Below, piece after piece: positions 14,542 through 61,241 of a stretch of 64,000 nt of DNA. Source of the stretch: Methanomassiliicoccaceae archaeon UBA472. Its GTDB lineage: Archaea; Thermoplasmatota; Thermoplasmata; Methanomassiliicoccales; UBA472. Made by a program: the position numbers and the translations under genes. The notes under the pieces are model-generated. The model did not search any database, was not told the DNA's origin, and saw only the letters and a program-made list of their open reading frames with translations. Positions within the stretch are counted from its first letter, which is position 1; every line of letters starts with the position of its first letter. The stretch covers positions 276-64,275 of the forward strand of contig DAML01000026.1 of the NCBI GenBank assembly GCA_002497075.1, written 5' to 3'.

Positions 14542-14545
14542 ATGC

Positions 14546-18752: not shown

Positions 18753-18773
18753 GTCTGGGAGCCTCCTTTTCGC

Positions 18774-26708: not shown

Positions 26709-29700
26709 CTACTTCTTTTTAAAGTACACCACCGCAGCTACGGCCACCACCGCTATTATCGCCAGGACCGCGATCACCATGACCCAGGGGGTCCCTCCGT
26801 TCTCCCCGCCGTCGTCCGCCGAGACGAGGGTCAGCTCGCCCAGGTCAGTAATGCCTTCTGCCGCCGATTCGACGCTCATCGAAAGGACCTCATACCCATC
26901 GGCATCCACCGTCAGCGTGTAGTTGCCTTCGCCGACCTGTTCGAAGAGGAAGCTGCCCTGTGAGTCTGTGGTGACGTTGTCCCCGTTGCTCAATCGAACC
27001 TCTATCCCTTCCAAGGGATCGCCATCCCCGTTGACCAGCTTGCCTTGGACGCTGCCTACCGACAATGTGCTGAAGGTCCAGGAGGTCGTCATGGAGTTCC
27101 CGGCCAGGTCCGTTCCGGTCACCGTAACGTTGTGGGCGGTGCCATACGCCAGCCTTTGAGAAAGGGTGAGCGTGGCGGTGTTACCGCTCCAATCTACGCT
27201 GCCCTCCACTCCGTCTACTGTGATCTCCACGGAGGTCTGGTTCATGAGCTCCGAGAACTCGACCACGATGAGGGGGCTCAAGGAAGCCTGGTCACCGGTG
27301 GGGGACACCTCCGCCGTAGGGGCGGTCGTATCCACGGTGAAGTTAACGGTCGCGGTTGCGGAGTTGCCAGCTGCGTCAGTGACCTTCACCTCGATGGTGT
27401 GCGCCCCGTCCTCCAGCGAATATATCCATGCAGTTGCCGACCCCAGTTCGGTCCAGTTCCCCCCGTCCACCCTAACGAAGGTGCCGTTAAGGCTGGATGT
27501 GGGGTCCTCGGCCGTCCATTCCACCGTACCGACGGTGTCATTGAGGAGTGCGCCTTCGGCCGGGGACACGATGACCACGACCGGGTCGTCGAGATCCAGG
27601 GTGAAGTTGCCGGACGATATTGCGAAGTTGCCGGCGGCATCGGTGACCTTGACATATACCGCGTGCGGGCCGGCCGTAAGCGCCAGTTTGACGAACTGCT
27701 CCTCGTACACCAGCACCCAAGGTTCTCCGTCGAACCTTATCTGTATCGTTCCCGGATTGACATCAGAGGTGGTCCAGGTCACCGTCACCGAGGTGACGTT
27801 GAACAGCTGCCCCTCCTCAGGAGTATCAATTTCCAGTGTCGGAGCGATAGTGTCCACGATGAAGGTGACGACCTCGTCCCTGCAATTACCCAAAGCATCA
27901 TAGGCGCTCACCATCACCGTATAAGTGCCATCCTCCAGATCGTTGATGGTATACGAGCTGCCAGTGGTGTTGATGGAGAACGATCCCTCCATGCTCACCG
28001 TGTAGTAAGTGATGCCTGTTCCCGCATCGAAGCCCGCCCAGGTGACCGTTACCTCGCTGTTCGCCACGTAACCGCCTTCGGCCGGGTAGGTTATGCTCAG
28101 CGAAGGCGCCTGGATGTCCACCTTTACCGTGACGGAGTCGGAGGACGATCGGCCGGCCTTGTCGTATATGGTCACGGTCAGGACGTGCGAACCATCACTG
28201 AGCCCATTGAAGGTGTAGGTGTTCACGCTGGGCAGCAATGTCACCGGAGATCCGCCCTCCCAGCTGACCTCGTAACGGTCAACTCCGGAACCGATGTCGC
28301 TGCCGTTCCAGATCACCGTGACACTATTGTCGGTGCTGAGGAAGTTGTCGGCCGGGGAATCGATGGTCACGGTCGGGGAGGTGACATCAACGGTGAAGGA
28401 GACCGCCATGTCCAGGTAGTTGCCGACGGCGTCGTAGGCGCTCACCAGCACCGTATAAGTGCCATCGGCCAGATCGTTGATGGTGTACGAACTTCCAGTT
28501 ACGTTGACGAAGAACATTCCCTCAATGCTAACGGCGTAGTAATCGATGCCGGATTCGGCGTCGCTGCCGTTCCAGGTCACCGTGACGCTGCTTCCGAGGT
28601 ACGCACCCTCCGCGGGATAAGTTATTTCCAAGGTCGGGGGAACGACGTCGAGCACCACTGTTATCGAGGCGTTAGCTTCTGATCCGTGAAGATCGACCAT
28701 GGTCACCGTGATGACGTTGTCGCCATCTGCCAGGGGAACGGCGGCCGTCCAGGCGTCCGTGCCGTAGCAGTCACCGGACGCATCGTTGGCGGCATTGTGC
28801 CAGGTCAGATGGTCCACGCCGAAGTAACTGAGCGCAGTTCCGGAAATGTCGACGCTAGTCTCGCCGGTGGCGAACCCGTCGGCCGGGGAGGTTATCGCCA
28901 CGCTTACAGCCAGCGGCAAGAGGTCTTTGCTCGCCCCGCCATCGATCAGGTACGCCTCGTCCACGATGCCATCGCCGTTGGAATCCGGAGAGGTCCAGTC
29001 GGCCCACAGGTTGCCGTACTCTGTATCGTTCCAGAAGTTCTCCCCACTGTCGTACGCCTGAACGTGCGCAGGGTCGTACTCAGATGTCGCGCCATTGTTG
29101 CCGATCAGCACATTGCCGAAGATGTGGTTCCTTGTCGAGGAGGTGATGCTAATGCCATACGCCATGCTGCTCTCGATGGTGTTGTTGGCGATTGTGTTCC
29201 CATAACAGTCGTCGTCTCCAACCCCAGTTAGGATCATGCCGTTGTGGTTGTTTACGAGGGTATTGTCGGCGATAACGTTGTTGTACGACCGGTACTCAAA
29301 ATACATACCCGCCATGCTGTTGTCCTCGCAGGTGTTGTTGATCACCCTGGAATCGTACAGCGGCCCTTGCACCCAAATTCCGTACACGTTGCCGATGCAG
29401 GTGTTGTTGGCTATCACGTACCGCGCTTTATCATACCAGATGTTGTTGATCTCGATCCCTTTATCAGCGTTGTTGCTGAAATCGTTCCCTTCCATACGAA
29501 TATCATCCCCACCCGAGATGGATATCCCATAGTCGGAACCCATGCAGGAATTGTTTGTTATGTTATTGTTAGAAGATGATACCACGTTGATGCTCCTGCG
29601 AAGCCCCATGAAATAATTGTTGTAGTTCAGCTCATTGAATGATATGCTGTTGAAATTGGAGCCATCCATGATCAGACCAACACCATTGTGTTCGCAGATG

Positions 29701-34414: not shown

Positions 34415-35575
34415 ATGGCTAGAGTTCGAACTTACCGCAACTACCAGGAGGCTTGGGGGGAATGGCGCCGGCTAGGAATACCGGACGGAGCGTTCACTAG
34501 GTTCGATCTGGCATCCAGGCAGTTCATTTTCATCGATTCCATCAGCAAGGAAGAGGTGAGCGCGCTCCAGGAAGAGCTGGCGCCTAAAAAAACGACGGTC
34601 CTGCCGTGCCGCGGAGACCGCGTTCTGGTCACCATCACCCCCCTTACCCTGGAGAACCTCCTGATGACCGGCGCCTCACCGAGGGTGTTGGAGATGGGCG
34701 AAGCGCTGCGTTTCCGCAACGAAGTGGAACCGCCATTGTTCGAGTGGTCGGACGGTTCGTTAGATCTATCGAAGCCGAGGGTCGTGGGCATTCTTAACCT
34801 GACCCCGGATTCCTTCTCCGACGGTGGACGGAATCCTGACGTGGACACGGCGGTGCAACGAGCTCTCGCCATGAAGGATGAGGGCGCGGACATCATCGAC
34901 ATTGGAGGAGAGTCCACCCGGCCTGGCTCGGCGCCAGTATCTCCGGACGAAGAATGGTCCCGGATCTCCGAGGTCGTAAGGAGAGTGAGCGAGGAGGCCG
35001 GTGTTCCGGTATCTGTAGATACTCGGCGTCCCGAGGTCGCGAGGAAAGCGCTTCGCGCGGGAGCGGTCATCGTGAACGACGTTTCCGGCCTCCAGGAGAA
35101 CATGGCCCAGGTGGTCCGTGACGAGGGGGCGGCCGCTGTCGTCATGCATATGCGAGGGGAACCGTCCAACATGCAGAACGACACCAGATACGTGGACGTG
35201 GTCGGGGACGTATACGCCTTCCTTGAGGGCCGGGTGAGAAAGGCCGTCGCCGGCGGGGTCCCGATGGAAAGACTGGCGATAGATCCTGGGCTGGGGTTCG
35301 CCAAGGACGTCGATGGCAACTTGGAGATCATGTCACGATTGGACGAGTTCAGATCGATGGGGCGTCCAGTTCTATTGGGGGCGTCCAGGAAGGCCTTCCT
35401 GGGGAAGATCTCCGGCGGCGGACCGGAGGACCGTTTGGAAGCCAGTCTGGCCGCTGTGGCCGTGGCCTGCTGGCAGGGCGTTCACCTCTTCCGGGTGCAT
35501 GATGTAAAAGAGACGGTGAGGGCTCTCAAGGCGGTCAGCGCCATGAGGGCGGGGATCAGCCCAAGGTCACCATGA
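34415..35575 (+). CDS. folP: dihydropteroate synthase with about 115-aa N-terminal extension
   Basis: The core motifs GILNLTPDSFSDGG, DIGGESTRPG and DPGLGFAK are present. The N-terminal 115 aa match no family I recognise. Confidence 0.85.
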   Translation: MARVRTYRNYQEAWGEWRRLGIPDGAFTRFDLASRQFIFIDSISKEEVSALQEELAPKKTTVLPCRGDRVLVTITPLTLENLLMTGASPRVLEMGEALRFRNEVEPPLFEWSDGSLDLSKPRVVGILNLTPDSFSDGGRNPDVDTAVQRALAMKDEGADIIDIGGESTRPGSAPVSPDEEWSRISEVVRRVSEEAGVPVSVDTRRPEVARKALRAGAVIVNDVSGLQENMAQVVRDEGAAAVVMHMRGEPSNMQNDTRYVDVVGDVYAFLEGRVRKAVAGGVPMERLAIDPGLGFAKDVDGNLEIMSRLDEFRSMGRPVLLGASRKAFLGKISGGGPEDRLEASLAAVAVACWQGVHLFRVHDVKETVRALKAVSAMRAGISPRSP

Positions 35576-35750
35576 TGGTTATGGCGATAAGGAGAACCGC
35601 CGCGATCCCGAAGAAGACCATGTTCCTGGTGCGCTCCTTCTTAGCCTCGCTTTCCGCAGCGGCCTTGCACTCGTCGGAGCAGTACTCCTGACCCACATCG
35701 ACAGGATCGTCGCAGCGAAGGCAATGGGAGTGTTCGGGAAGCAGGCTCAT
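35556..35750 (-). CDS. small zinc-ribbon plus TM protein (DUF2116-like)
   Basis: 64 aa: CLRCDDPV...YCSDEC, then a basic linker and a C-terminal TM helix (MVFFGIAAVLLIAITIMV). Confidence 0.6.
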   Translation of the reverse strand: MSLLPEHSHCLRCDDPVDVGQEYCSDECKAAAESEAKKERTRNMVFFGIAAVLLIAITIMVTLG

Positions 35751-48003: not shown

Positions 48004-49053
48004 ATGATTCGCTTTGGTCCAGCTGGTATTCCACTTTCTTGTAAGGGTCGCACTTTGAAGGACGGTATCGAGGATGTTCACGGCCTCGGCCTAAACGCCA
48101 TGGAGGTGCAGATGGTCAGGGTGAACGTGTCGCCGCGCTCCCCTGACGACGAGGAGGTCGGTCTGACCCCCCGCCAGCTCGATGGCGACCTAGTGGTGGA
48201 GATGCACCGTAAGAAGGGCAAGAAGGACGTTCAGATTACTAATCTGGATGAGAAGATAAAGGAGGACGATGTCCTGATCAGCCTCTCGTCCGGGCTCGCC
48301 CACAACTTCGACGAACTGCAGAAGCTGGGAGTAATGGGAAGCGAGCTCGATGTTGAGCTATCCATGCACACCCCATATTACATAGACCTGGCCGGCGAGG
48401 GCGATCTCACCAAGAAGAGCATGGACTCCATCCGCTGGGCCGGGCTCATGACCCAGGCCATGGGCGGCAACATGGTTGTAACCCATATGGGGCTTTACGG
48501 CAACATCAGCCGCCGCGAGGCCGCGGAGAACATATCCGACCGTTTGGAGGAGATCGTCACCTGGTGGGAGAAGAACAAGCTCACCCCCAGATTGGGTCTG
48601 GAGACCTCCGGACGCAAGGAAGTGTTCGGGGGTTTGGACGAGATCATGGATCTGTGCGACAAGTTCGACCGCCTGTCGCCTGTGGTCAATTTCGCCCACC
48701 TTCACGCCCGCAGCAACGGCATGCTGCGCGAACCGGAGGACTTCGCTGAGGTCTTCGACAAGGTCAGCAGCTACGTCGGCGGATTTCATTACACTCATTT
48801 CTCGGGCGTGGAGCACGAGGGGGGCAACGAGAGAAGGGTCACCCCCATCAAGAAGGGCGACCTGCGCTTTGAGCCGATGGCCGAGTACCTGGCCGATGCA
48901 AATCTGAACGCCACGATCATCTCCAGCTCTCCGCTCTTGGAGCATGACGCCATGTACATGAAGGTCATTTACGAAAGGGTCATGACCAAGAGGGTCACTA
49001 AGGACATCAAGGTCAAGAAAGGCAAGGGTGCCAAGGACGAGGATGAGGATTGA
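48004..49053 (+). CDS. xylose-isomerase-like TIM-barrel protein (AP endonuclease 2 / endonuclease IV-related family)
   Basis: 349 aa. The N-terminus FGPAGIP... and the HTPYYIDL, THMG and HYTHFSG metal-ligand contexts resemble the family. It has a charged insert and a Lys/Asp/Glu-rich tail. Confidence 0.7.
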   Translation: MIRFGPAGIPLSCKGRTLKDGIEDVHGLGLNAMEVQMVRVNVSPRSPDDEEVGLTPRQLDGDLVVEMHRKKGKKDVQITNLDEKIKEDDVLISLSSGLAHNFDELQKLGVMGSELDVELSMHTPYYIDLAGEGDLTKKSMDSIRWAGLMTQAMGGNMVVTHMGLYGNISRREAAENISDRLEEIVTWWEKNKLTPRLGLETSGRKEVFGGLDEIMDLCDKFDRLSPVVNFAHLHARSNGMLREPEDFAEVFDKVSSYVGGFHYTHFSGVEHEGGNERRVTPIKKGDLRFEPMAEYLADANLNATIISSSPLLEHDAMYMKVIYERVMTKRVTKDIKVKKGKGAKDEDED

Positions 49054-49589
49054 AGGAGACCACCGCCTACATTCTTGACGAGGTCAGGCGGACCATCGAA
49101 AAGGTCGACGAGACGATAATAGATGATATCGTCACCACCCTCGCCGCCGCCCCCAAGATATTTATCTACGGGGTTGGACGGTCCGGACTGGTCGGCGAGG
49201 CGTTCGCCGCCCGTCTGGTGCAGATCGGCCTCAACGTTCATTTCGTCGGAGACACGACCACGCCTATCGTGGAGAAGGGGCACGTCGTGCTCATCATCTC
49301 CAACACCGGGGAGACCATGTCCGCGGTGCAGACCGCCAACATCGTCCGTCGTCTGGGAGCGGTGGTGATAAGCATCACCGGCAGCGCCCACTCGAAGCTG
49401 GGGATCGCCAGCAACATCGTGATGGAGCTTGTGCAACCGAGGGATGAGCAGAAGAAGAGGAACGCGCCGCTTGGAACGATATTCGAGGCGTCCAGCATGG
49501 TCATGATGGACTCCATGGTGCCGCTTCTGATGGCCAAGCTGAACCAGGACGAGTCCTCGTTAAGACGAAGGCACGCCATCTGGGTCTGA
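49050..49589 (+). CDS. phi: 6-phospho-3-hexuloisomerase (SIS domain)
   Basis: IFIYGVGRSGLVGEAFAARLVQIGLNVHFVGDTTTP, PLGTIFEASSMVMMD and the C-terminal LNQDESSLRRRHA closely parallel archaeal PHI. The TTG start overlaps the upstream stop. Confidence 0.88.
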   Translation: MKETTAYILDEVRRTIEKVDETIIDDIVTTLAAAPKIFIYGVGRSGLVGEAFAARLVQIGLNVHFVGDTTTPIVEKGHVVLIISNTGETMSAVQTANIVRRLGAVVISITGSAHSKLGIASNIVMELVQPRDEQKKRNAPLGTIFEASSMVMMDSMVPLLMAKLNQDESSLRRRHAIWV

Positions 49590-50186
49590 TCACATCCTTA
49601 TTTTCCGGGGACGAACGCTCTCGCCGTAATAGGGATTCTGGAACTCGTCCCAGTACACCAGGAACTTTCTGCGCCGAACTTCGTCGTTGGAAAGGCAGAA
49701 GGCGTCCATCTCCTTGCGGATGGGATCGACCACCAGGGCGGTATGGTATGGCTTATCGAACATCCCCTTCTGGGTTGACACGTCCGTAGAGGAAAGGAAG
49801 CAGCCGTGCCCGGGATGGGAGTGGTACCAGCCCACGAGCACGTAGCGGAACCGGGCGCATTCCAGTGAGGCGAACAGTGATTCGAAGCCCTCCGGGTCGA
49901 ATCTGACGCTTACGGACGTCGCTTCCAGATCGGTGGTGGCCACATCACGGACCACCGTGTATTCCGCGCCTTTGTGCGTGAACACCTCGCCGAGCAGGAA
50001 GCCCATGACCTCCAGCCCCGCCTTTACCTGGGAGAGGGCGTGGTTGCGCACCTTCTCCTCGGCGGTCTTGAAGAGATACATCTCCGCCCCCCTGATGTCC
50101 GTGTAAAGCGATGCGGCCTCCTTGGGCAGCCACTTGTGCGGCAGCGTTCTCTCCTCGGCCGGGGGCAGCATCTCCTCCACCTCCAT
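49590..50186 (-). CDS. MPN+/JAMM metalloprotease (Rpn11-like deubiquitinase candidate)
   Basis: About 198 aa. GFLLGE (catalytic Glu context) and the complete JAMM motif WYHSHPGHGCFLSSTD. I chose the ATG at 50186, 32 nt after the E2 stop; the ORF is open back to 50402. Confidence 0.85.
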   Translation of the reverse strand: MEVEEMLPPAEERTLPHKWLPKEAASLYTDIRGAEMYLFKTAEEKVRNHALSQVKAGLEVMGFLLGEVFTHKGAEYTVVRDVATTDLEATSVSVRFDPEGFESLFASLECARFRYVLVGWYHSHPGHGCFLSSTDVSTQKGMFDKPYHTALVVDPIRKEMDAFCLSNDEVRRRKFLVYWDEFQNPYYGESVRPRKIRM

Positions 50187-50218
50187 GTCCTTTCCGCCGA
50201 GGATGACCGGGGGCCTCT

Positions 50219-50725
50219 TCAACGACGCACCACCTTGGGAGCGGGGGCGATTATCACCGGAGGTGTTCGACGGGGGGAGGAATTGAAGTACTGGGCGGCG
50301 GCGGTGCAGGTGTCGGTGCCGAACGGGCTGTTGCCGTTCGGCGAGATGAGCAGGGATTCCAGCCCCTTTATGAAATTGGATAACGTGGAATTGAAGGACC
50401 ATTCCGAGAGCAGCTTGATGCAGACATGACCGCCATCCTCGGGCATCATGATGTTGGGATGGAATATCGGCGTCCTCCAGATCACCAGCGGCTTCTCGAA
50501 CGGATATTCTCGGCCGATTATCAGCTCCAGCCGGTGGTTGTAACGGTAACCGAGCTTCCCGTTCTCCATGACCGGGCCGGGTATGCCTTCCATGGCCACC
50601 TCCACCTTCAGCGGGAACGTCGTCAGATGCCCTTCGCTGTAATCGAAGTCTTTGGGGAGGTTGTGATGGCAGGCCTCCAGCTCGTTCCTCAATCTTATGT
50701 AAAGGATCTCCTGGGGCAGGGTCAT
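50219..50725 (-). CDS. ubiquitin-conjugating enzyme E2 (UBC fold)
   Basis: 168 aa. YPFEKPLVIWRTPIFHPNIMMPEDGGHVCIKLLSEWSF...LESLLISPNGNSP reproduces the eukaryotic UBC pattern YPf.pP...F.t.i.HPNi...G.iCl..L...W...i..LL..PN...P, including the catalytic Cys. Confidence 0.8.
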   Translation of the reverse strand: MTLPQEILYIRLRNELEACHHNLPKDFDYSEGHLTTFPLKVEVAMEGIPGPVMENGKLGYRYNHRLELIIGREYPFEKPLVIWRTPIFHPNIMMPEDGGHVCIKLLSEWSFNSTLSNFIKGLESLLISPNGNSPFGTDTCTAAAQYFNSSPRRTPPVIIAPAPKVVRR

Positions 50726-50967
50726 CTGTTCCCGCCCTCGGGGTCGGGTATCAGCTCAAGCTCCTCGTTGGCCTGGACATCCAGTTCCTGGACCTTCTGC
50801 TGACCGCGTAGCAAGCGCCGGCCCTTACGGATGACGTAGGCGCCCGGGTCCTTCTCCCAATAGGCCGAGACGCCCTCGATGATCTCCTCCACGGTGTTCT
50901 CCATCTCCAGCTCCATGTCGACCGTGGCACCGGTCTCCGCGTTCCTGACCCTTACCCTTACCACCAT
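50722..50967 (-). CDS. ubiquitin-like (beta-grasp) modifier precursor ending GG-NR
   Basis: 81 aa. The alternating beta-strand-like start is VVRVRVRNAETGATVDMEL. The C-terminal tail is LELIPDPEGG followed by two extra residues (NR). The stop overlaps the E2 start (ATGA at 50722-50725). Confidence 0.65.
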   Translation of the reverse strand: MVVRVRVRNAETGATVDMELEMENTVEEIIEGVSAYWEKDPGAYVIRKGRRLLRGQQKVQELDVQANEELELIPDPEGGNR

Positions 50968-51025: not shown

Positions 51026-51913
51026 TTATGATAATTTGGCCGAGAGATGATTGGAACAGCCTGGGTCGATGTCTAGGGCGAATACTTCGCTCGTCCCCGC
51101 CAGACCATCGTAATGCATCACGTTCGCGATCGCCGATCTTCCGGAGAGGATCTTCACCGCCTCCCTCACCTGCACGGCGGCTACTATGCTGGTGGTGGTT
51201 ATCTCCGCCGCCATCTTCGGCTGGTAGAACACGGTGTCCTGACCGGTGCAGCTGAAGCGGCGCTCCATGACCTTGAAGTGGCTGCGGTTCATGCCGCATT
51301 GCAAGCATGGCGAAAACGGAGGGACGACCGCCTGCACCCTTCCCCGGAACCCGTCCGTGCCGCCGTCCACGTAAGGCACCTGGGCATGATAGGAGTTGGC
51401 GTTCAGGTGCAGTCGGGCCGCAACGTTATCCAGGCACCCCAGTATCATGTCGTATCGTTTCATATCCTCCGGACCCAGGGACTGTACCTTCCCCTCGATG
51501 GCCTTGATATCGATCTCCGGACATAGCCCCCTGGCCCTCTCCGCGACCAATGGCGCTTTGCCTTTTCCGGATGATTGATCGCCTTCCCGGAACAGCACAC
51601 AGCGGCTGAGGTTTGACCGCACCACGGTATCCATGTCCAGAACGTCCACGTGGCGGAAGCCGAAGAGCGCCAGGTCCTTCACCGCTTCGTTCCCCAGCGC
51701 ACCCGCTCCGACGACGAGCACGTTGGAGGAACTTACCTTATCCATGTCCACCCAGGTAATGAGCCTGGTCCGGTCGTGGCGGTCCTCGTCCCTTTCCCCT
51801 GGACGGATCAGCTCGGCCATGTCGGGAGCGACCGATCCCTGACTATAAAAAAATGGACCGTACCAGTACATATTGTGATATTCACGAACATATGGACTGG
51901 ACGGTAACCTCAT
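51026..51913 (-). CDS. ThiF/MoeB/UBA-type E1-like adenylating enzyme
   Basis: About 296 aa. The nucleotide-binding motif is VLVVGAGALGNEAVKDLALFGFRHVDVLDMDTVVRSNLSRC. GCLDNVAARLHLN and the CxxC motif (PCLQCG) are also present. I chose the ATG at 51913 because the longer ORF (to 52348) would run antisense through ppk. Confidence 0.85.
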   Translation of the reverse strand: MRLPSSPYVREYHNMYWYGPFFYSQGSVAPDMAELIRPGERDEDRHDRTRLITWVDMDKVSSSNVLVVGAGALGNEAVKDLALFGFRHVDVLDMDTVVRSNLSRCVLFREGDQSSGKGKAPLVAERARGLCPEIDIKAIEGKVQSLGPEDMKRYDMILGCLDNVAARLHLNANSYHAQVPYVDGGTDGFRGRVQAVVPPFSPCLQCGMNRSHFKVMERRFSCTGQDTVFYQPKMAAEITTTSIVAAVQVREAVKILSGRSAIANVMHYDGLAGTSEVFALDIDPGCSNHLSAKLS

Positions 51914-51946
51914 ATATACTGGAGGTAGGATGTAATAAGGACGCCC
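51911..51946. promoter_or_regulatory. 33-bp back-to-back intergenic region between the E1 gene and ppk, with TATA-like elements
   Basis: catatatact (51911-51920) lies about 27 nt upstream of the ppk ATG (51947). On the other strand CTTATTACA lies about 15-25 nt upstream of the E1 ATG (51913). Both genes would be near-leaderless. Confidence 0.35.
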
Positions 51947-54073
51947 ATGCCGGCCCGCAAGAGCAGCGCAGACCGTAAGACCAGTGCTCGCAACAGCAAG
52001 TCCAAGAAGCAGTCCAGGAACTCGCCGTTCATCAACCGGGAGATCAGCTGGGTACGGTTCCACAAGCGAATACTTGAGGAGGCGCAGGACACCGCCCACC
52101 CCATTTTGGAGAGGGTGAAGTTCCTGGCCATCTGCGGCAGCAACCTGGACGAGTTCTTCATGGTCCGGGTGTCCGGGCTGATGAGTCAGTTGAAGAAGGG
52201 CGCCCTGGAGGCACCGCCGGACGGACTGACGCCTTTGGAGCAGCTGGAGACCATCAGTGAGGAAATTCTGCCGTTGCTGGAAGCGCACGGCAAGCTGTGG
52301 CATGAAGATCTCCAGCCCAAGCTGAGGACGGCGGGTATCAGTATCCACACCGTGAAGGACCTCGAGCCAGACAAACGCCAGGGATTACGCGATTACTTTG
52401 AGCGGATGATCTTCCCGGCCTTGACGCCATTGGCCTTGGACTTCAATCAACCGTTCCCGTTCATTTCCAACCTGAGCATCAACCTGGCCGTCAGCGTGAG
52501 GCATCCCCAGAGAGGGGACCGCTACGCCCGGGTCAAGGTCCCTCTAAGCCTATTCCCTCGCTTCGTGCCTATCCCCGGAAGCGCACTAGGAAAGCAGCAG
52601 GACTTTGTTCTGCTGGAGGACCTGGTGGCCGATAACCTCGATCTGTTGTTCCCGGGCATGAAGGTGCGGGACGTGCACGTGTTCCGCATAACCCGTGATG
52701 CGGACATCGAGATAACCACCGACGAGGCGGAGGACCTTCTGACCGCCGTCGAAGAGAGCGTGGAGACCAGACGTGTCGGTTCACCGATCCGCCTGGAGGT
52801 GGACAACGACATGCCGGATAAGCTCGTCGACCTCTTCGCCACGAAGCTAGGGCTCCATCCTCTGATGGTGTTCCGCTCCCACGCTCCACTCTCGCTGGTC
52901 GGATTCTGGGACCTTCTTTCACTTAACCGACCGGACCTCAAGGACCCGCCGTTCCTTCCCTATGTGCCGCCGGACCTGGTGCCCGAGAAGTCGCTGATGT
53001 CCGCGGTGGAGCATCGCGACCGGCTGTTCTATCATCCTTACGATTCCTTCGTGCCGTTGGTAACCTTCCTGAAGCAGGCGGCCAACGACCCCCAGGTGCT
53101 GGCGATAAAGATCACTCTTTATCGCATCGACAAGCACTCTCCGATCATCGACGCTCTCATGGAAGCGAGGGAGAACGGCAAGGCGGTGGCTGCGGTGGTC
53201 GAACTGAAGGCGCGCTTCGATGAGGAGAACAACATCGTCTGGGCTCGGGCCTTGGAGAACGCCGGCGTCCACGTGGTCTACGGCCTCATGGACCTGAAGG
53301 TGCATGCCAAGCTGCTTCTCGTCGTCCGTAAGAAGGGCGACAGCATCGTGCGTTACAGTCACATGAGCTCTGGGAACTACAACGCACAGACGTCCCGCAT
53401 CTACGGTGACATAGGATACCTCACCGCCGACCCGGACATCGGGGCGGACGTGGCCGACCTGTTCAATTACCTCACTGGATACTCGCACAAGGACTCCTAC
53501 CGAAAGCTGCTGGTGGCGCCTGTGGCACTGAAGAAGGAGATGATCGCTCGCATCGACCGCGAGGCGGCCAGGCAAAGGGAGCATGGGGACGGGTATCTGG
53601 CCTTCAAACTGAACGGTCTTCTGGACCCGGACATCATTCTGGCGCTGTACCAGGCCTCTCAGGAAGGCGTCCGCATCGATCTGAACGTGCGCGGGCTGTG
53701 CGCCTTGCGCCCCGGCGTGAAGGGGCTTAGCGAGAACATCAAGGTCAACAGCATCGTCGGGCGCTTCCTGGAGCACGCCAGGATATACTACTTCCGCAAC
53801 GGTGGTGAGGAGGAGGTGTTACTGGGCAGCTCGGACATGATGCCCCGCAACCTCAAGCGCAGGGTTGAGGTGCTGTTCCCCGTGCTGGACGAGCAGTACC
53901 GCCGGCGGCTGGTGGACGAGATACTGTCTATACATCTGAAGGACAACGCCAAGTCCCGCGACATGCTGCCCGACGGCACCTACGTCAAAAGGAAGATCGC
54001 CAAGGGCGAGGAGAGGGTTGATTCCCAGGCCTGGCTGATCAAGAACCGCGGTTCCTGGCACAGGGAGGAGTGA
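51947..54073 (+). CDS. ppk: polyphosphate kinase 1
   Basis: 708 aa. FINREISWVRFHKRILEEA N-terminus, the autophosphorylated-His region VVYGLMDLKVHAKLLLVVR and the PLD-like HxK motifs. Confidence 0.95.
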   Translation: MPARKSSADRKTSARNSKSKKQSRNSPFINREISWVRFHKRILEEAQDTAHPILERVKFLAICGSNLDEFFMVRVSGLMSQLKKGALEAPPDGLTPLEQLETISEEILPLLEAHGKLWHEDLQPKLRTAGISIHTVKDLEPDKRQGLRDYFERMIFPALTPLALDFNQPFPFISNLSINLAVSVRHPQRGDRYARVKVPLSLFPRFVPIPGSALGKQQDFVLLEDLVADNLDLLFPGMKVRDVHVFRITRDADIEITTDEAEDLLTAVEESVETRRVGSPIRLEVDNDMPDKLVDLFATKLGLHPLMVFRSHAPLSLVGFWDLLSLNRPDLKDPPFLPYVPPDLVPEKSLMSAVEHRDRLFYHPYDSFVPLVTFLKQAANDPQVLAIKITLYRIDKHSPIIDALMEARENGKAVAAVVELKARFDEENNIVWARALENAGVHVVYGLMDLKVHAKLLLVVRKKGDSIVRYSHMSSGNYNAQTSRIYGDIGYLTADPDIGADVADLFNYLTGYSHKDSYRKLLVAPVALKKEMIARIDREAARQREHGDGYLAFKLNGLLDPDIILALYQASQEGVRIDLNVRGLCALRPGVKGLSENIKVNSIVGRFLEHARIYYFRNGGEEEVLLGSSDMMPRNLKRRVEVLFPVLDEQYRRRLVDEILSIHLKDNAKSRDMLPDGTYVKRKIAKGEERVDSQAWLIKNRGSWHREE

Positions 54074-56217
54074 AGTTGTCCGAGGACCTATGCGCCTATG
54101 GACGGCTGGTTACCGCACAGAGGCTGGAGGCGCTCTTGGCCGAGGTCGAGGGAGTGCGGACCGGGGAGGACATCGAATACGTGCACCGGATGCGCGTGGC
54201 CTCCCGGCGCCTGCGCTCCGCGCTTCGCATATTCGAGGAATGCTTCAAAGGCAAGAAAGGAAAGAAGTGGAGAAGAGCGGTCAGACAGGTCACCACCTCG
54301 CTCGGCGAGGCGAGGGACCTGGACGTGCAGATGGACCTGCTCGGCTCTATCGGAAAAAGCTGGGAAGGGGAGGAGGCGGTCGGCCTAGCGCTCATTATCG
54401 AGATGCTCAGATGCCGACGCACGTCCCTGCAGCCGGACGTCGTTACGCTGATGGAATCCATCGTCGGCGACGGCGATCTCGCAGAGATGAGAACGGAACT
54501 TGCTGCTCCTACGGAGTGGAAAGGCGATCCGTCCGTCCTCTATCCATACGCCTATGCCCACGCCGCGGTGGCCGTCGAGGAGCTGATGGAGCATTCCCAT
54601 TCCGTCCCGGTCTATGAGGATTGGCAGGGGCACCACGCCCTGCGTATCGCCGGCAAGCATTTGCGTTATGCGCTCGAGGCTTTCCGGGACGCTTACCCAG
54701 ATGGGCTGGATGGCGAGCTGAAGGCCCTCAAGAAGCTGCAGGATACGGTTGGCGAGCTGCACGATTGCGACGTCTGGCTGCAGCGGTTGCCCGGTCTGCG
54801 CGAGGAAGCGCCCAGCGCGGTCAAGGCCATTGACCGCCTCCAGATCACGTTCGGGTCGAGAAGGAAAGAGCTGCACGCGAAGCTCGTGGAGCAATGGTTC
54901 GCTATTCTGCAGGAGCGCTTCCTTTTCCGGCTGCTTGACGATCTTAAAGGCCGTCCGTTAGTGGAGGCTTGCCCGGTCAAGGTGGCCCTGATCTCGGACG
55001 CGCACGGGAACGTTTCCGCCCTTCGAGCGGTGATGGAGCATGCCCGGGCGAACGGAGCGACGGCCTTCCTGAACGCCGGGGACGCGGTGGGTCTGCCTCA
55101 ACCTCTGGAAACGATCCATCTGCTGAGGGACAAGGACGTCCTGAACGTCTTCGGCAACATCGACAGGGCGGCGTTGAAGATCGCCTCGGGTAAAAAGATC
55201 AAGGACCGCCAGTGGGAGATGGCGACGGAAATGCTCGGGGAGAACGAAATGGAATGGTTAGGCTCATTACCGGACGAGCTGCGCCTGGACATCTGCGGCC
55301 GAACCGTGCTGGTCACCCACGCCTCCCCAGGACAGGAGGCGGAGAAACTGACCCCATCCACGCCTGAGACCAGGCTGCGCCATCTGGCCGAGGAGAGCGG
55401 GGCGGACGTGATCGTCACCGGGCATTCGCACGTTCCGATGGTCCGGGAGAGTGCTGGAACATTGTTCGTCAATCCGGGGAGCGTGGGACGCCCCCGCGAC
55501 GGAGCTGACGCTTCCTACGCCCTGCTGGACTTCCCGTCCATGAATGTCAAGCTCATCAGGGTTCCCTACGACGCAAGAGGCGTCGCCGACGAGATCCGGG
55601 CGCAGGGATTCAAGGACCTGCCCCAGGACGTTGAGAACGGGCGAACGGAGGACAAGGTCAAGGACGCCGCGGCCTGGGCGGAACAGTTCGGTATCGACCG
55701 TCCGCACGCTGAGCAGGTGAGGACGCTCGCGGCGCTGATATTCGATAACGCACGAGGGCTGCACCGTCTCGACCCCAAGGACCGCGAGCTCCTGGAAATG
55801 GCGGCCATGGTGCATGACGTTGGGCTAAACGAAGGAGCGGAGGGGCATCAGAGAAGGGCCCTGGACATCGTTATGAAGGCGGGTCTGCCCCTGGACGAAG
55901 TGGAGAAAAGGATGCTGGCCTGCATCGCCCGCTATCACGGCATGCGCTCTCCGCGCCGTGAAGACCGGGTGTTCAAGGGACTGACCCAATCGGAGCGGAA
56001 GAGGGTGACCAAGATCTCGGCCATCCTTGCATTGGCTGATGGCCTGGACCGCAGCCACTCCTCCCTGGTGGGAGGATTGGAAGTGATCGTGGGCAGAAAG
56101 GCCGTGAAGATCATGATCTCCGGACAGGGAGACCTTTCAACGGAAAAGGAATGGGGAACCCGAAAAGCTGTACAGTTCGCCCGTGCCTTCGGCCGGGAGG
56201 TGACCGTCAATGGTTGA
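54070..56217 (+). CDS. tri-domain protein: CHAD domain + calcineurin-like metallophosphoesterase (YfcE/MJ0936-like) + HD domain
   Basis: Residues 1 to about 300 are CHAD (VHRMRVASRRLRSALRIFEE, HALRIAGKHLRYALEAF). Residues about 305-530 are the phosphoesterase (VALISDAHGN, NAGDAVG, LVTHASPG, VTGHSHVP, NPGSVGRPRDG). Residues about 540-715 are the HD domain (AAMVHDVGL, IARYHG). The start overlaps the ppk stop. Confidence 0.8.
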   Translation: MKLSEDLCAYGRLVTAQRLEALLAEVEGVRTGEDIEYVHRMRVASRRLRSALRIFEECFKGKKGKKWRRAVRQVTTSLGEARDLDVQMDLLGSIGKSWEGEEAVGLALIIEMLRCRRTSLQPDVVTLMESIVGDGDLAEMRTELAAPTEWKGDPSVLYPYAYAHAAVAVEELMEHSHSVPVYEDWQGHHALRIAGKHLRYALEAFRDAYPDGLDGELKALKKLQDTVGELHDCDVWLQRLPGLREEAPSAVKAIDRLQITFGSRRKELHAKLVEQWFAILQERFLFRLLDDLKGRPLVEACPVKVALISDAHGNVSALRAVMEHARANGATAFLNAGDAVGLPQPLETIHLLRDKDVLNVFGNIDRAALKIASGKKIKDRQWEMATEMLGENEMEWLGSLPDELRLDICGRTVLVTHASPGQEAEKLTPSTPETRLRHLAEESGADVIVTGHSHVPMVRESAGTLFVNPGSVGRPRDGADASYALLDFPSMNVKLIRVPYDARGVADEIRAQGFKDLPQDVENGRTEDKVKDAAAWAEQFGIDRPHAEQVRTLAALIFDNARGLHRLDPKDRELLEMAAMVHDVGLNEGAEGHQRRALDIVMKAGLPLDEVEKRMLACIARYHGMRSPRREDRVFKGLTQSERKRVTKISAILALADGLDRSHSSLVGGLEVIVGRKAVKIMISGQGDLSTEKEWGTRKAVQFARAFGREVTVNG

Positions 56218-57769
56218 GCCGGAAAAAGGAAAGGTCGTGGCTTTCCTGGACGTCGGTACCAACTCCGTCCGGCTGCTGGTGGTGCGCATCAATCCCAACC
56301 GCTCTTACACGGTCATCAGCGAACAGAAGGAGATGGTGAGGCTGGGCGAACAGGAGTTCTCGGACGGACTGCTGCTGGAGAGCGCCATGGAACGGGCGGT
56401 GAGGGTGACAAAGAACTTCTGCGACCTTTCCAAAACGTACGGAGCGACGGAGTTCGTGGCCATGGCCACCTCGGCCACCCGGGAGGCGTCCAACCGCTCC
56501 GAGCTGGTCGAAAGAGTTAAGGAAGCCACCGGCCTGGAGCTGCAGATCATCTCGGGCATGGAGGAGGCCAGGCTGATCTATCTCGGCGTGTCGAGCGGGC
56601 ACCACATCGGCCGCAAGACCGCCCTGTTCCTGGACATCGGCGGGGGCAGCACCGAGCTGGCCCTGGGCGATCAGAACGAGTATTCCTATCTGGAAAGCCT
56701 GAAGGTGGGGGCCATCCGCCTCACCACCATGTTCGTGAAGAAGCCGGAGGCGCCGATCCCTGACGACGCCTTGGTCAAGATGCGCAAGTACGTGAAGAGC
56801 TCGCTGGTCCGGGCGAAGAAGGAGATAGTGCAGAGCAAGGTGTCCCTGGCCTTCGGCAGCTCCGGGACCGTGGTGAACCTTGGCGAGATATTGCTGCGCC
56901 AGGACAGCAGCTCGCGCCCCGGGGTGATCAGGTACTCGCAGCTGAGGAAACTGACACCCCAACTGGCGTCGCTGGACCTGGCCGCCCGGCGCAAGGTGCC
57001 CGGGATGAACCCGGAGAGGGCGGACATAATCGTGGCCGGGGCGATGGTCCTGGAAACGGTCATGGACGAGCTGAAGCTGAACGAGATCGCCGTAAGTCAG
57101 CGAAGTATGCGGGACGGGATGCTGCAGGACTATCTCGGCGGTCTGGAGGAGTTCCCGGGCTTCCGCGAGCTGTCCGTGCGCGAACGCAGCGTGATCCAAT
57201 TGGGGCGGGCCTGCTCGATAGATGAGGAGCACGCCCGGCGGGTGACGTCCATAGCATTGGAACTTTTCGACAGCGCCACGAAGAAGGGCCTGCACACTTT
57301 GGGCAAGAAGGAGCGGGAGATGCTGAACCACGCGGCCTTCCTGCACGACGTGGGCGATTTCATCTCCTTCAACGATCATCATCTGCACTCGCACTACATT
57401 ATCTGCCACGCCGAGCTGCTGGGATTCTCCAACCGCGAGGTGTTGCTCATCGCCAACATCGCCAAGTATCACCGCAAGCGCACGCCGAAGATGAGGGCGG
57501 CCGACCTGCGCGAACTGGATGAGAAGGACCAGCAGGTGCTGATCCGCCTATCGACGCTGCTGAGAATGGCCGAGAGCCTGGACCGTTCCCACTCCAATCT
57601 GGTGCAGAACGTGCGCTTCAGCAAGGTGACGAAACGCTCGGTCAAGCTGATAATCACCGCCAGCGGGGACCCCCAGCTGGAGATGTGGCGCATGGAAGAA
57701 GATCGAAAAGCATTCAAGAAGGCCTACGGAAAGGACCTCATGGTGGTATTGAACAACATCGAAGGCTGA
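56210..57769 (+). CDS. ppx: exopolyphosphatase / guanosine pentaphosphate phosphohydrolase family (Ppx/GppA) with C-terminal HD domain
   Basis: FLDVGTNSVRLLVV, DIGGGSTEL, and C-terminal HAAFLHDVG and IAKYHRK. The start overlaps the upstream stop by 8 nt. Confidence 0.92.
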   Translation: MVEPEKGKVVAFLDVGTNSVRLLVVRINPNRSYTVISEQKEMVRLGEQEFSDGLLLESAMERAVRVTKNFCDLSKTYGATEFVAMATSATREASNRSELVERVKEATGLELQIISGMEEARLIYLGVSSGHHIGRKTALFLDIGGGSTELALGDQNEYSYLESLKVGAIRLTTMFVKKPEAPIPDDALVKMRKYVKSSLVRAKKEIVQSKVSLAFGSSGTVVNLGEILLRQDSSSRPGVIRYSQLRKLTPQLASLDLAARRKVPGMNPERADIIVAGAMVLETVMDELKLNEIAVSQRSMRDGMLQDYLGGLEEFPGFRELSVRERSVIQLGRACSIDEEHARRVTSIALELFDSATKKGLHTLGKKEREMLNHAAFLHDVGDFISFNDHHLHSHYIICHAELLGFSNREVLLIANIAKYHRKRTPKMRAADLRELDEKDQQVLIRLSTLLRMAESLDRSHSNLVQNVRFSKVTKRSVKLIITASGDPQLEMWRMEEDRKAFKKAYGKDLMVVLNNIEG

Positions 57770-59640: not shown

Positions 59641-60867
59641 ATGAAAGCGCTCATCCTGGCCGCCGGGGAAGGCACCCGCCTCAGACCGCTCACCAGCAAC
59701 ATTCCCAAGCCGCTGCTGACCGTGGCCGGAAGACCGTACCTTGCCCATTTAGTGCAGGCGCTTGGCGACGCGGGCATCAAGGAGCAGGTCATACTGGTGG
59801 GCTGGAAGGCCAACCGGGTCAAGGAGTTCTTTGGTGACGGAGGGCAGATGGGCGTGGAGCTCAGCTACCTGGAGCAGAAGGAGCGCCTGGGCACCGCCAA
59901 CGCCATAGGGGTTGCCGAAGGGGTCATGGACGGCGACTTCATCTGCGTGAACGGGGACGTGGTCATGGCCCCGGAGGCGGTGGCCGAGATGGTCTCGACG
60001 TTCCAGAAGGACCACACGCCGTTCATGGGCGCCGTCGAGGTCCCGGAGCCGCAGCGGTTCGGGGTCGTCCAGCACGAAAACGGGAAGCTGGTCAGGATAA
60101 TCGAGAAGCCGTCCAACCCTCCATCGAAGCTTATCAACGGGGGCTTCTTCGGTCTCACCACCGAGATTTTCGATCATATAAGGAAGACCGGGCGATCGCC
60201 ACGCGGGGAGTATGAGTTCACCGACACCCTGAACATGATGGCCTCGAACACGGAGGTTGCCGTCCGTAATATAAAGGGGGAGTGGATGGACGTCGGCTAC
60301 CCCTGGGAGCTGCTGCGTGCCAACGAGTTCCTCATGGGCCGCCTGAAGCGCGATATCCGAGGGACGGTGGAAGAGGGAGCGGTGCTCAAGGGTGAGGTCG
60401 TCGTCGAAGAGGGCGCCCTGATCAGGAGCGGGAGCTACATCGAAGGCCCAGCGTACATCTCCAAGGGCTGTGATATCGGGCCGAATTGCTACATCCGGCC
60501 CTCCACCAGTCTTGGTGAAGAGGTGCGTATCGGAAGCTCGGTGGAGGTCAAGAACTCCATAGTCATGAAGAGGGCGCACATCCCGCATCACAATTACGTC
60601 GGCGACAGCATTATCGGGGAAAGGTGCAACTTCGGCGCCGGGACCAAGGTGGCCAACCTGCGCTTCGACGATCGCACCGTTCGCGTTACGAACAAGGGGC
60701 AGATGCTGAGCAGCGGCCGGCGCAAGCTGGGAGTGGTGATGGGGGACGATGTCAAAACCGGCATCAACGCCATGATCGAGCCGGGAACGGTGATCTGGGA
60801 AGGCACCGTGGTGGGCATGGGCGCCCGGGCCCGCGGGAACATCGGGCCGAACAGCAAGGTGTTCTAA
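59641..60867 (+). CDS. bifunctional sugar-1-phosphate nucleotidylyltransferase / acetyltransferase (archaeal GlmU-type)
   Basis: N-terminal MKALILAAGEGTRLRPLT nucleotidyltransferase fold plus C-terminal left-handed beta-helix hexapeptide repeats. Confidence 0.85.
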   Translation: MKALILAAGEGTRLRPLTSNIPKPLLTVAGRPYLAHLVQALGDAGIKEQVILVGWKANRVKEFFGDGGQMGVELSYLEQKERLGTANAIGVAEGVMDGDFICVNGDVVMAPEAVAEMVSTFQKDHTPFMGAVEVPEPQRFGVVQHENGKLVRIIEKPSNPPSKLINGGFFGLTTEIFDHIRKTGRSPRGEYEFTDTLNMMASNTEVAVRNIKGEWMDVGYPWELLRANEFLMGRLKRDIRGTVEEGAVLKGEVVVEEGALIRSGSYIEGPAYISKGCDIGPNCYIRPSTSLGEEVRIGSSVEVKNSIVMKRAHIPHHNYVGDSIIGERCNFGAGTKVANLRFDDRTVRVTNKGQMLSSGRRKLGVVMGDDVKTGINAMIEPGTVIWEGTVVGMGARARGNIGPNSKVF

Positions 60868-61241
60868 AGCTCGACCACCGGCAGCTGCATGCGCCGTCCG
60901 CGTCCGTCGTAAGCGCGCCAGCTGCCCTCGTCGTACGGCAGGCACGTGATTATATGGATGTATCCGTAGCGGCGGAAAAGCTCCAGGTCCTCGCGGGAGG
61001 GCCGGTTGCTGTAGCCCGGGTGGGAGTGCACCGTGCCGACGACCGAGTAGTCTATGGGCATCATGTGCATCATCAGGGTGGCGGAGTCCTCGCCCTGCAG
61101 CGTGCCCGGCAGTAGCAGCAGCTCCTCGATGACGCCTTCCTCGGCCCGGAGCATGGCCACGAACTCGTTCGGCAGCGAATCGCGGGCGGCCTGGTTGATC
61201 ATTTCCAAGAGGCCGCGATCGATGCCACGGACCTTCAGCAT
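60864..61241 (-). CDS. stand-alone JAMM/MPN+ metalloprotease (archaeal JAMM1-type)
   Basis: 125 aa. NEFVAMLRAEEG (Glu context) and GTVHSHPGYSNRPSREDL (HxHx7Sx2D). Confidence 0.85.
   Translation of the reverse strand: MLKVRGIDRGLLEMINQAARDSLPNEFVAMLRAEEGVIEELLLLPGTLQGEDSATLMMHMMPIDYSVVGTVHSHPGYSNRPSREDLELFRRYGYIHIITCLPYDEGSWRAYDGRGRRMQLPVVEL

Follow-up and report, generated by a model that had tools for sequence, protein, structure and literature searches.

We analysed a 64,000-nucleotide (64-kb) stretch of DNA from Methanomassiliicoccaceae archaeon UBA472 (contig DAML01000026.1), referred to hereafter as the window, focusing on a gene that encodes a ubiquitin-conjugating enzyme (E2) of the UBC fold. 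This gene is the third of four co-directional genes which encode, in this order, a ubiquitin-activating enzyme-like protein (E1), a ubiquitin-like modifier (Ubl), the E2 and a metalloprotease of the JAMM family (Table 1). An earlier note on this DNA had described the E2 as retaining a near-complete eukaryotic UBC grammar, and had suggested that the system may operate without a ubiquitin ligase (E3) or with one encoded elsewhere. Here, the window was examined together with 83 related loci, taken from one genome per species and read over +/-10 kb. The conserved catalytic apparatus of the four proteins was found intact, and so was the operon structure in which they are encoded.

Organization of the cassette

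The stop codon of the Ubl gene and the start codon of the E2 gene overlap by 4 nucleotides (nt; ATGA, in AGATGA), the E2 stop overlaps the TTG that opens the JAMM frame (TTGA, in CGTTGA), and the E1 and Ubl genes are 58 nt apart. A small gene could not have been overlooked at such tight junctions. The four genes constitute a translationally coupled operon. On the plus strand, the frame over the E2 interval is broken by a stop codon, the open reading frame (ORF) being that of the minus strand.

Table 1. Positions of the cassette genes, their motifs and the convergent neighbours in the window, and of the genes at the related locus L083 (numbered within that locus). aa, amino acids.
Feature	Sequence	Position	Strand	Evidence or remarks
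AP_endonuc_2/xylose-isomerase-like TIM barrel	Window	48004-49053	plus	Pfam; convergent syntenic neighbour
SIS-domain protein	Window	49050-49589	plus	Pfam; convergent syntenic neighbour
Rpn11-like JAMM/MPN+ metalloprotease, 210 aa	Window	49590..50222	minus	Start TTG 50222; 198 aa if ATG 50186; Pfam JAB, 51 bits
E2 (UBC fold), 168 aa	Window	50219..50725	minus	Pfam UQ_con; PDB phmmer; AF2/Foldseek; orthologues
E2 C-terminal tail motif P163-K-V-V-R-R	Window	50222..50239	minus	Family consensus P-x-P-[KR]-V-V
Cys102 codon, predicted thioester-forming catalytic Cys	Window	50420..50422	minus	Aligns with UBE2E1/UBE2D2 catalytic Cys; invariant in 23 orthologues
HPN motif codons, His89-Pro90-Asn91	Window	50453..50461	minus	Invariant in orthologue alignment
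Ubiquitin-like modifier, 81 aa, pro-form ending ...ELIPDPEGG-NR	Window	50722..50967	minus	AF2/Foldseek; invariant GG terminus
E1-like activating enzyme, ~264 aa	Window	51026..51820	minus	Pfam ThiF, 157 bits; start Met at 51820
Finger protein	L083	9-9494		Finger at ~9342-9470
Ubl	L083	9624-9893		
E2	L083	10061-10543		
JAMM	L083	10587-11528		

Sequence and predicted structure of the E2

The E2 matches the Pfam UQ_con model (PF00179; cut-off, 27 bits) with 52.8 bits (E = 4.1e-14), and the same domain is carried by all 120 E2 homologues listed. When solved structures were searched with phmmer, the best 60 of 261 matches in the PDB were all eukaryotic E2s, with E <= 2e-7. All the motifs quoted in the earlier note were found, namely RLRNELEAC (residues 11-19), YPFEKPLVIW (74-83), HPN (89-91), Cys102, Trp109 and LLISPNGNSP (125-134), and the HMMER and BLASTP alignments confirmed that they lie in register with canonical UBC domains (UBE2E1, E2-C, UBC12 and UBE2D2); YPF, HPN, Cys102, Trp109 and LLxxPN align column for column with their counterparts in UBE2E1, E2-C and UBC12. 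One spacing had to be corrected: the catalytic Cys had been placed seven residues after a Gly-Gly pair, but this pair is found at residues 98-99, so that Cys102 lies only 3 residues on. The Trp said to follow the Cys does so, 7 residues past it.

Residues H89, P90, N91, C102, W109 and P129-N130 are invariant among 23 orthologues with identities down to 49%, and C140 is a second invariant Cys. A model computed with AlphaFold (AF2) from an alignment of these 23 orthologues displayed a mean predicted local distance difference test score (pLDDT) of 86.7, and Foldseek related it to UBE2S, UBE2N and UBE2D with probability 1.0 and template modelling (TM) scores of 0.52-0.62. With the core of UBE2D2 the E2 shares 39% identity over 64 residues, from which it departs by a 3-residue insertion between HPN and the catalytic Cys. 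Loop 4 (Tyr-Pro-Phe) is kept, whereas loop 7 reads W-S-F-N as opposed to the canonical W-S-P-A, with Phe111 invariant and the following residue polar in the 23 orthologues; hence Pro95-Ala96 of UBE2D2 correspond to Phe-Asn, and its Asp117 corresponds to Ser. The C-terminal tail is conserved, proline-rich and basic. The description of a near-complete eukaryotic grammar thus holds for the motifs and the fold, and is slightly overstated in view of the insertion, loop 7, the Asp117 replacement and a TM-score of ~0.6. The E2 is canonical and probably active.

The E1, the modifier and the protease

Mechanical ORF calling assigns the E1 440 amino acids (aa; 51026-52348, minus strand), which makes it run ~400 nt into the ppk1 gene (51947-54073, plus strand). 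This extension is not conserved and is a long-ORF artefact of a 59% GC content; the real E1 has ~264 aa, and the orthologues of Methanomassiliicoccus luminyensis have 253-259 aa. Among solved structures, the E1 is closest to the adenylation domain of SAE2/UBA2 (4e-24), followed by UBA3 and UBA1, and gives 2e-18 with MoeB and 2e-9 with UBA5. Its residues 14-256 align with residues 11-245 of the 249 of Escherichia coli MoeB, that is, end to end, and it is therefore devoid of a C-terminal ubiquitin-fold domain (UFD) and of a separate Cys domain. Two elements are invariant in 70 E1 orthologues: C172xxC175...C255xxH258, a probable zinc site, and Cys191, located in the RFSCTG sequence of the crossover loop, which is a candidate catalytic Cys.

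The Ubl displayed weak, below-threshold matches to the Pfam ubiquitin and YukD models, whereas its AF2 model (pLDDT 92.7) had as best Foldseek matches ubiquitin (TM-score 0.86, root-mean-square deviation 1.3-2.1 A), SUMO2, Hub1, ISG15 and Caldiarchaeum ubiquitin. The ELIPDPEGG sequence is invariant across the orthologues. The Gly-Gly pair is followed by no residue in 37 loci, by 1-2 residues in 31 and by 5-13 in 13, a pattern which, as far as the sequences tell, marks the Ubl as conjugatable and, in some cases, in need of trimming. Given these variable tails and the natural Ubl-E2 fusions of distant relatives (P0129, P0189 and P0193), which are joined at ...PDPTGG-, a processing protease would be required. 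Such Ubl-GG-E2 polyproteins would themselves need cleavage. The predicted tryptic remnant of the Ubl comprises 21 residues (VQELDVQANEELELIPDPEGG), and standard K-GG enrichment would therefore fail, whereas Glu-C, cutting after ...PE, would leave GG. In every named public record listed (P0277-P0396) the Ubl is labelled 'hypothetical protein', although its E2 neighbour has a name, which leaves the modifier effectively without annotation.

For the JAMM protein, the mechanical ORF (270 aa) was over-extended into the E2 gene. Among solved structures, the protein is closest to Rpn11 (4e-16), followed by CSN5 (7e-14) and Caldiarchaeum Rpn11 (4e-11), and is more distant from AMSH (2e-5) and BRCC36 (7e-5), and the EVMG, H134-S-H136, S144 and D147 elements are conserved in 80 orthologues. 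A second JAMM protein of the Prok-JAB type (125 aa, HSHP motif; 60864-61241, minus strand) is encoded 10 kb from the cassette, beside a NAD kinase gene, and is presumably an ordinary archaeal JAMM1/2-type enzyme.

Search for a linked E3

A six-frame scan of the whole window retrieved no RING pattern, nor any 2xCxxC pattern within 49-52.5 kb, and Pfam searches with essentially every gene of the window gave no RING, U-box, HECT or IBR match. These negative scans, together with the tight gene junctions, bear out the earlier statement that no RING-like ORF lies in the cassette or flanks it; a RING gene overlooked within or next to the operon was specifically looked for, and none was found in the window.

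The related loci were first scanned with regular expressions for canonical C3HC4/C3H2C3 RINGs and a loose cross-brace, which gave zero matches in 1.39 Mb of sequence, C4HC3 and all-Cys fingers being invisible to these patterns. They were supplemented with a generic scan for binuclear Cys/His fingers, according to which 82 of the 83 loci have none within 10 kb of the cassette. The sole locus with a RING-like finger is L083, the most divergent relative (E2 47% identical), where a gene located 130-160 nt upstream of Ubl-E2-JAMM encodes a protein of 3161 aa with alpha-helical repeats, a CARDB domain and a C-terminal C4HC3 finger, ending in CHICLGTIKSGLPLVRCECGKTYHETCASRVGECPNCG. No E1 was found nearby at this locus, and its JAMM has a C-terminal membrane extension. 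The L083 finger scored 21.8 bits with Prok-RING_1 and 21.1 bits with zf-RING_2, both sub-threshold, although the near-identical protein P0275 carries a precomputed PF14446 (Prok-RING_1) assignment. No homologue of the finger protein was detected in the other loci or in the window, and a protein search for an unlinked E3 of Methanomassiliicoccales with its CARDB and RING tail returned 2 near-identical matches only, a weak null since the protein index is insensitive to short fingers.

Further fingers were observed in two distant E2 operons, L087 (3377-3949) and L089 (3036-3494), which encode small proteins with a transmembrane helix, a P-R-I-[IV] motif and an 8-Cys finger (for example, CHHC-x13-CSNC-x4-CEEC-x4-CVHC); these proteins have no Pfam match, and their fingers are weakly similar to that of L083. 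In L089 the E2 is moreover present as two paralogues, of which one is a fusion with a Ubl.

Within the window, small zinc proteins are represented by a single case, a 64-aa DUF2116 protein (35556-35750, minus strand) with a four-Cys zinc finger and a C-terminal transmembrane helix, homologues of which lie ~5-6 kb from the E2 gene in L041, L057 and L070. It was considered as a cryptic E3, DUF2116 being described as a 'probable treble clef', and was rejected: it has four Cys only, lies 14.5 kb away, and its linkage is inconsistent.

The E2 surface that contacts RING domains was also inspected. In Caldiarchaeum, mutation showed the loop-4 PY and loop-7 PS motifs of the E2 to be needed for RING-dependent activity, and the supplementary alignment gives its loop 7 as HWSPS (PMC5654768). 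The W-S-F-N loop of the window E2 would fit a surface that no longer serves a RING. This reading is no more than suggestive, since in eukaryotes E1s bind to that face too.

Distribution and genomic context

A total of 142 E2 homologues were retrieved from the protein database, all named ones belonging to Methanomassiliicoccales or Euryarchaeota, and mostly annotated as 'ubiquitin-conjugating enzyme E2', some as 'hypothetical protein'. The E2 of the cultured M. luminyensis is 58% identical to that of the window, within a locus ordered E1-Ubl-E2-JAB-SIS-AP_endonuc_2. At the species level, at least 206 loci were recognized, all of them in Methanomassiliicoccales, Methanomethylophilaceae or unclassified Thermoplasmata/Thermoplasmatota. 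Complete genomes with the cassette include M. luminyensis B10 and the chromosomes OW818644.1, OY760646.1, OY968769.1 and OY970070.1. The complete arrangement, E1-Ubl-E2-JAMM followed by the convergent SIS and AP_endonuc_2 genes, is displayed by 68 of the 83 loci examined, the upstream neighbour alone being variable; in most of the remaining 15, which include L083, a contig end truncates the locus or one flank gene is missing. Because the same neighbours are kept across the whole order, the cassette is a vertically inherited chromosomal locus and not a mobile island. Its surroundings are housekeeping genes (ribosomal proteins, RpoN, ppk1, lysine biosynthesis).

The SIS and AP_endonuc_2 genes were found in the same position and orientation in 71/83 loci, and their convergence with the JAMM gene is kept order-wide even at ~50% protein identity, an unusually stable synteny. 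We regard them as syntenic neighbours, and as mere candidates for membership in the system. On the other side, and divergent from the E1 gene, a polyphosphate cluster (51947-57769, plus strand) encodes ppk1 (708 aa), a CHAD-metallophosphoesterase-HD fusion (715 aa) and a Ppx/GppA protein (519 aa); the ppk1-CHAD pair is common only to the 13 closest relatives. Further away, the window encodes a 1723-aa surface-type protein with NosD/beta-helix repeats and many Ig-like domains (26709-31880, minus strand), and a lysine (diaminopimelate) gene run comprising an aminotransferase, DapF, LysA, aspartate kinase, DapB and DapA (13384-19661, minus strand).

Insertions within the cassette or just after it were observed in two sets of relatives. 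In one Thermoplasmata subclade (L053, L058, L067, L068, L071, L072, L074, L076 and L082), an extra co-directional gene between JAMM and SIS encodes a glycoprotein-like membrane protein of 380-416 aa with an N-terminal signal or transmembrane segment, many N-x-S/T sites and a C-terminal transmembrane helix. In L062, L063, L073 and L080, an opposite-strand gene of ~275 aa with repeats such as QSxDGSWN separates E1 from Ubl, and a 57-66-aa CxxC-x7-CxxC-x3-CxxH-x8-CxxC protein is encoded 6-7 kb away. The products of both kinds of inserted gene were evaluated as E3s and discarded, none of them being Cys/His-rich.

An exhaustive HMMER search for distant E2 relatives produced 4375 matches, 30 of them below 1e-30. 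In addition to the Ubl-E2 fusions already mentioned, this wider set includes E2-JAMM fusions (P0122 and P0140) and proteins that combine a Ubl with an E2-like domain lacking the catalytic Cys (P0152, P0158 and P0161), which are apparently inactive and UEV-like. Apparent Ubl-E2 fusions in L046, L056 and L079 proved to be ORF-extension artefacts, with a stop codon separating the genes, and genuine fusions are found only in distant relatives.

A short motif at the E2 tail and the JAMM N-terminus

Within the last 14 residues of the E2, a P-[RKP]-[IVL]-[IVL] motif is present in 66/83 loci, the remaining tail being variable; tails without it mostly carry R-[IV]-R-[IV]-[IV]-G. A similar element opens the JAMM protein in most loci (M..P-x-[IV]-[IVL]-G, starting 0-24 nt past the E2 gene), the window JAMM beginning with MKRPPVILGG (50193-50222). 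The motif recurs in the tails of the distant E2s P0182, P0189 (three copies) and P0193, in the linker of the E2-JAMM fusion P0122, and in accessory proteins of L084, L087 and L089.

With neither a UFD on the E1 nor an E3 linked to the cassette, other means must join the parts, and we regard this motif as a candidate docking element. The model was borrowed from the UBA5-UFC1 pair, in which the partner E2 is recruited by a short linear motif. By this analogy the cassette may be an autonomous machine, free of both E3 and UFD, in which P-x-[VI]-[VI] docks, its partner being perhaps the E1 or the Ubl, much as a SUMO-interacting motif or a UFM1-interacting motif would do, an idea that we consider doubtful and put forward tentatively. 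If true, the motif would take over the roles of UFD and RING and would represent a previously unrecognised E1-E2-DUB (deubiquitinase) coupling; the cassette could then be a pre-E3 stage of the eukaryote-like cascade, kept in a cultivable methanogen lineage.

Comparison with known systems

The operons of Caldiarchaeum and Asgard archaea encode ubiquitin, E1, E2, one or more small RING finger proteins and Rpn11 (PMC3082918, PMC5654768, PMC6043591), and the mention of small RING finger proteins in the Caldiarchaeum operon by the earlier note is thereby corroborated (PMC5654768, PMC6043591). Like these operons, the window cassette encodes an Rpn11-like protease of the JAMM family, a ubiquitin-fold modifier in a pro-form with residues past the Gly-Gly, and an E2 of the UBC type in which a lengthened loop separates HPN from the Cys; moreover, all its components are nearer to eukaryotic proteins than to those of the SAMP/MoeB type. 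The E2s of the window and of Caldiarchaeum are 29% identical over 149 aa. Conversely, the window cassette has no small RING finger gene, in contrast to Clusters I and II, its E1, MoeB-sized with 264 aa, has neither the C-terminal ubiquitin-fold domain nor the Cys domain of ~60 aa, S-F-N stands in place of the SP[S/A] by which loop 7 of the Caldiarchaeum E2 contacts the RING, its genes are ordered E1-Ubl-E2-JAMM on one strand, and its host belongs to a euryarchaeal (Thermoplasmata) methanogen lineage.

Operons closer to the window cassette have been described. Fuchs 2018 reported that prokaryotic JAMMs near Rpn11 (JAMM-3) sit in operons with ubiquitin, E1 and E2 homologues, to which RING proteins are added only in Caldiarchaeum and Asgard (PMC6043591). 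The cassette resembles these E3-less operons in its co-linear Ubl, E1, E2 and JAMM genes without a RING and in an E1 without a C-terminal Ubl domain, and its JAMM resembles the JAMM-3 group in being nearer to Rpn11/CSN5 than to archaeal JAMM1/2 or other eukaryotic JAMMs, by sequence scores as distinct from CLANS clustering. Cluster III of Hennell James 2017 comprises E1s without a UFD, together with E2s said to group with bacterial E2-like proteins (PMC5654768); the cassette probably matches this arrangement as well, although its E2 passes the eukaryote-derived UQ_con model well above threshold.

In the available text of Fuchs 2018 and Hennell James 2017, no Methanomassiliicoccales operon is named, and the literature searched contained no paper linking this order with a ubiquitin-conjugating enzyme. 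The M. luminyensis protein WP_019177758 was flagged as a PSMD14/Rpn11 orthologue, as a JAMM alone and with no description of the adjacent E1, Ubl and E2 (Fort 2015, PMC4453063); its genomic position suggests orthology with the window JAMM. Grau-Bove et al. (2015) reported a euryarchaeal ubiquitin toolkit only in a Marine Group II cell. Thus, E3-less E1/E2/Ubl/JAMM operons are already known, and the window family is an undescribed, but database-annotated, member of them.

The bacterial Bil operons consist of E1, E2, Ubl and DUB only, conjugate without an E3, and use the DUB to pre-process the Ubl; their E2, BilB, carries a CEHH motif (PMC10557695). The parallel with Bil/Bub systems drawn in the earlier note is sound in that E3-less Bil operons do exist and that BilABCD and the window cassette share a four-gene E1/E2/Ubl/JAB content. 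It goes no further than a functional analogy: the window E2 and Ubl have no match in PADLOC, the E2 has HPN...Cys in place of CEHH, and Bil is a sporadic defence operon, unlike the fixed, syntenic chromosomal locus described here.

With respect to eukaryotic UBC enzymes (UBE2D, UBE2E, UBE2N, UBE2S and UBC12), the E2 agrees in fold, loop-4 YPF, HPN, Cys, Trp at +7 and LLxxPNxxxP, and differs in the pre-Cys insertion, the Phe-Asn of loop 7, the Asp117-to-Ser replacement, C140, the proline-rich basic tail and a TM-score of ~0.6. Like UBA5, the E1 is a single MoeB-sized adenylation domain with its candidate Cys on a short crossover loop, ~16 residues past CxxC; however, it is much nearer to SAE2, UBA3 and UBA1 (~1e-24) than to UBA5 (2e-9), and the candidate docking motif is found here on the E2, whereas that of UBA5 is on the E1. 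Unlike SAMP/UbaA sampylation or MoaD-MoeB, the cassette has an E2, and the top structural matches of its Ubl model are ubiquitin, SUMO and ISG15, not MoaD or ThiS.

Proposed cascade and alternatives

From the conserved residues and the gene order we infer, with a probability of about 0.5, that the E2 is a catalytically competent UBC enzyme in a self-contained, vertically inherited E1/Ubl/E2/JAMM operon that performs tagging without an operon-encoded E3. In such a cascade, the JAMM would remove the Asn-Arg that follows the Gly-Gly of the Ubl, as suggested by the variable tails of the orthologues and by the Rpn11 of Caldiarchaeum, which matures pro-ubiquitin (PMC5654768). The MoeB-sized E1, to judge by its sequence, would adenylate the Ubl C-terminus and form a thioester on the crossover-loop Cys191, from which the Ubl would be handed to Cys102 of the E2, a residue set in the motif and fold of a UBC enzyme. 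The E2 would then discharge directly onto lysines of its targets or of itself; in Caldiarchaeum, auto-ubiquitylation by E1 and E2 proceeds with no E3 present (PMC5654768). Target recognition would lie with the E2 or its P-x-V-V tail rather than with a RING adaptor, and the JAMM may also reverse the conjugates.

Several observations weigh against this proposal, and some of them favour the same cascade assisted by an E3, of the RING type or another, or by a specificity factor, whose gene would lie elsewhere in the genome; the operon as seen would then be incomplete. In Caldiarchaeum, modification of substrates required the RING, and without it only E1 and E2 auto-modification was obtained (PMC5654768). 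A C4HC3 finger protein stands upstream of the Ubl gene at L083, its near-identical relative P0275 being assigned PF14446, and the distant operons L087 and L089 carry transmembrane 8-Cys finger proteins weakly resembling it; the wider clade thus associates with RING-like fingers, of which the lineage of the window has none linked, and this lineage is not intrinsically RING-free. RING and RINGv proteins have also been reported in Marine Group II, another Thermoplasmatota lineage (PMC4327156). The loop-4 YPF, the other RING/E1 contact, is retained in the E2. The scans covered the 64-kb window and, in the related loci, +/-10 kb, with which an unlinked E3 is compatible, and the docking role of the P-x-V/I-V/I motif is putative and speculative. 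On the other hand, such a gene was found neither in the window nor within 10 kb in 82/83 loci, the L083 protein is without homologue in the other loci and has 2 database relatives only, the RINGs of archaeal and bacterial systems are described as operon-linked in the literature consulted, and the loop-7 RING contact has diverged. We therefore regard an E3 encoded elsewhere as a serious possibility, though a distinctly less probable one than tagging without an operon-encoded E3.

In a narrower function, the system would act chiefly on its own components or on a single dedicated partner, E2~Ubl or E2-Ubl being the end product and a regulatory switch. This is unlikely in our view, although in Caldiarchaeum both E1 and E2 become auto-ubiquitylated, the latter on a lysine of its C-terminal tail (PMC5654768), the window E2 has a conserved basic tail, and Ubl-E2 fusions, E2-JAMM fusions and Cys-less Ubl-E2-like proteins occur among relatives. 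The corresponding tail position is Lys or Arg family-wide and is not a conserved acceptor lysine; furthermore, a reversible DUB and an invariant catalytic apparatus in >200 species would seem excessive for a switch.

We disfavour, as very improbable, an anti-virus defence module of the Bil/CBASS-Cap2 kind. The cassette's gene content of E1, E2, Ubl and JAB is indeed that of BilABCD, and in PADLOC the E1 weakly matches E1-E2 models of the Cap2 type (best 1.2e-15) as well as BilD (7.6e-5, 19.6 bits); nevertheless, neither the E2 nor the Ubl is matched, the JAB match is marginal only, CEHH is missing from the E2, and the housekeeping surroundings with the same neighbours order-wide indicate vertical inheritance rather than a mobile defence island. 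Least credible of all is a role in sulfur transfer or cofactor synthesis along the lines of MoaD/ThiS-MoeB/ThiF, which would account for a MoeB-sized E1 with full-length alignment to MoeB and ThiF, but gives no role to an E2 with an invariant catalytic Cys or to an Rpn11-like isopeptidase, and is at odds with a Ubl model whose top matches are ubiquitin, SUMO and ISG15 instead of MoaD/ThiS, with an E1 adenylation domain nearer to SAE2, UBA3 and UBA1 than to MoeB, and with the lack of any linked rhodanese or cofactor-biosynthesis gene.

Implications

The earlier interpretation is partly supported, the sequence data being compatible both with an E3-free mode and with an E3 encoded elsewhere. In either case, our results indicate that the eukaryote-like set of ubiquitin, E1, E2 and Rpn11 is not confined to Aigarchaeota and Asgard, and that it is fixed in a large euryarchaeal order which includes the cultured, human-associated M. 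luminyensis. With an E1 devoid of UFD and Cys domains and with no linked E3, the cassette is about the smallest system made of eukaryote-type parts, and it would constitute a convenient in vitro model for what an E2 does alone and for the transfer from E1 to E2 without a UFD.

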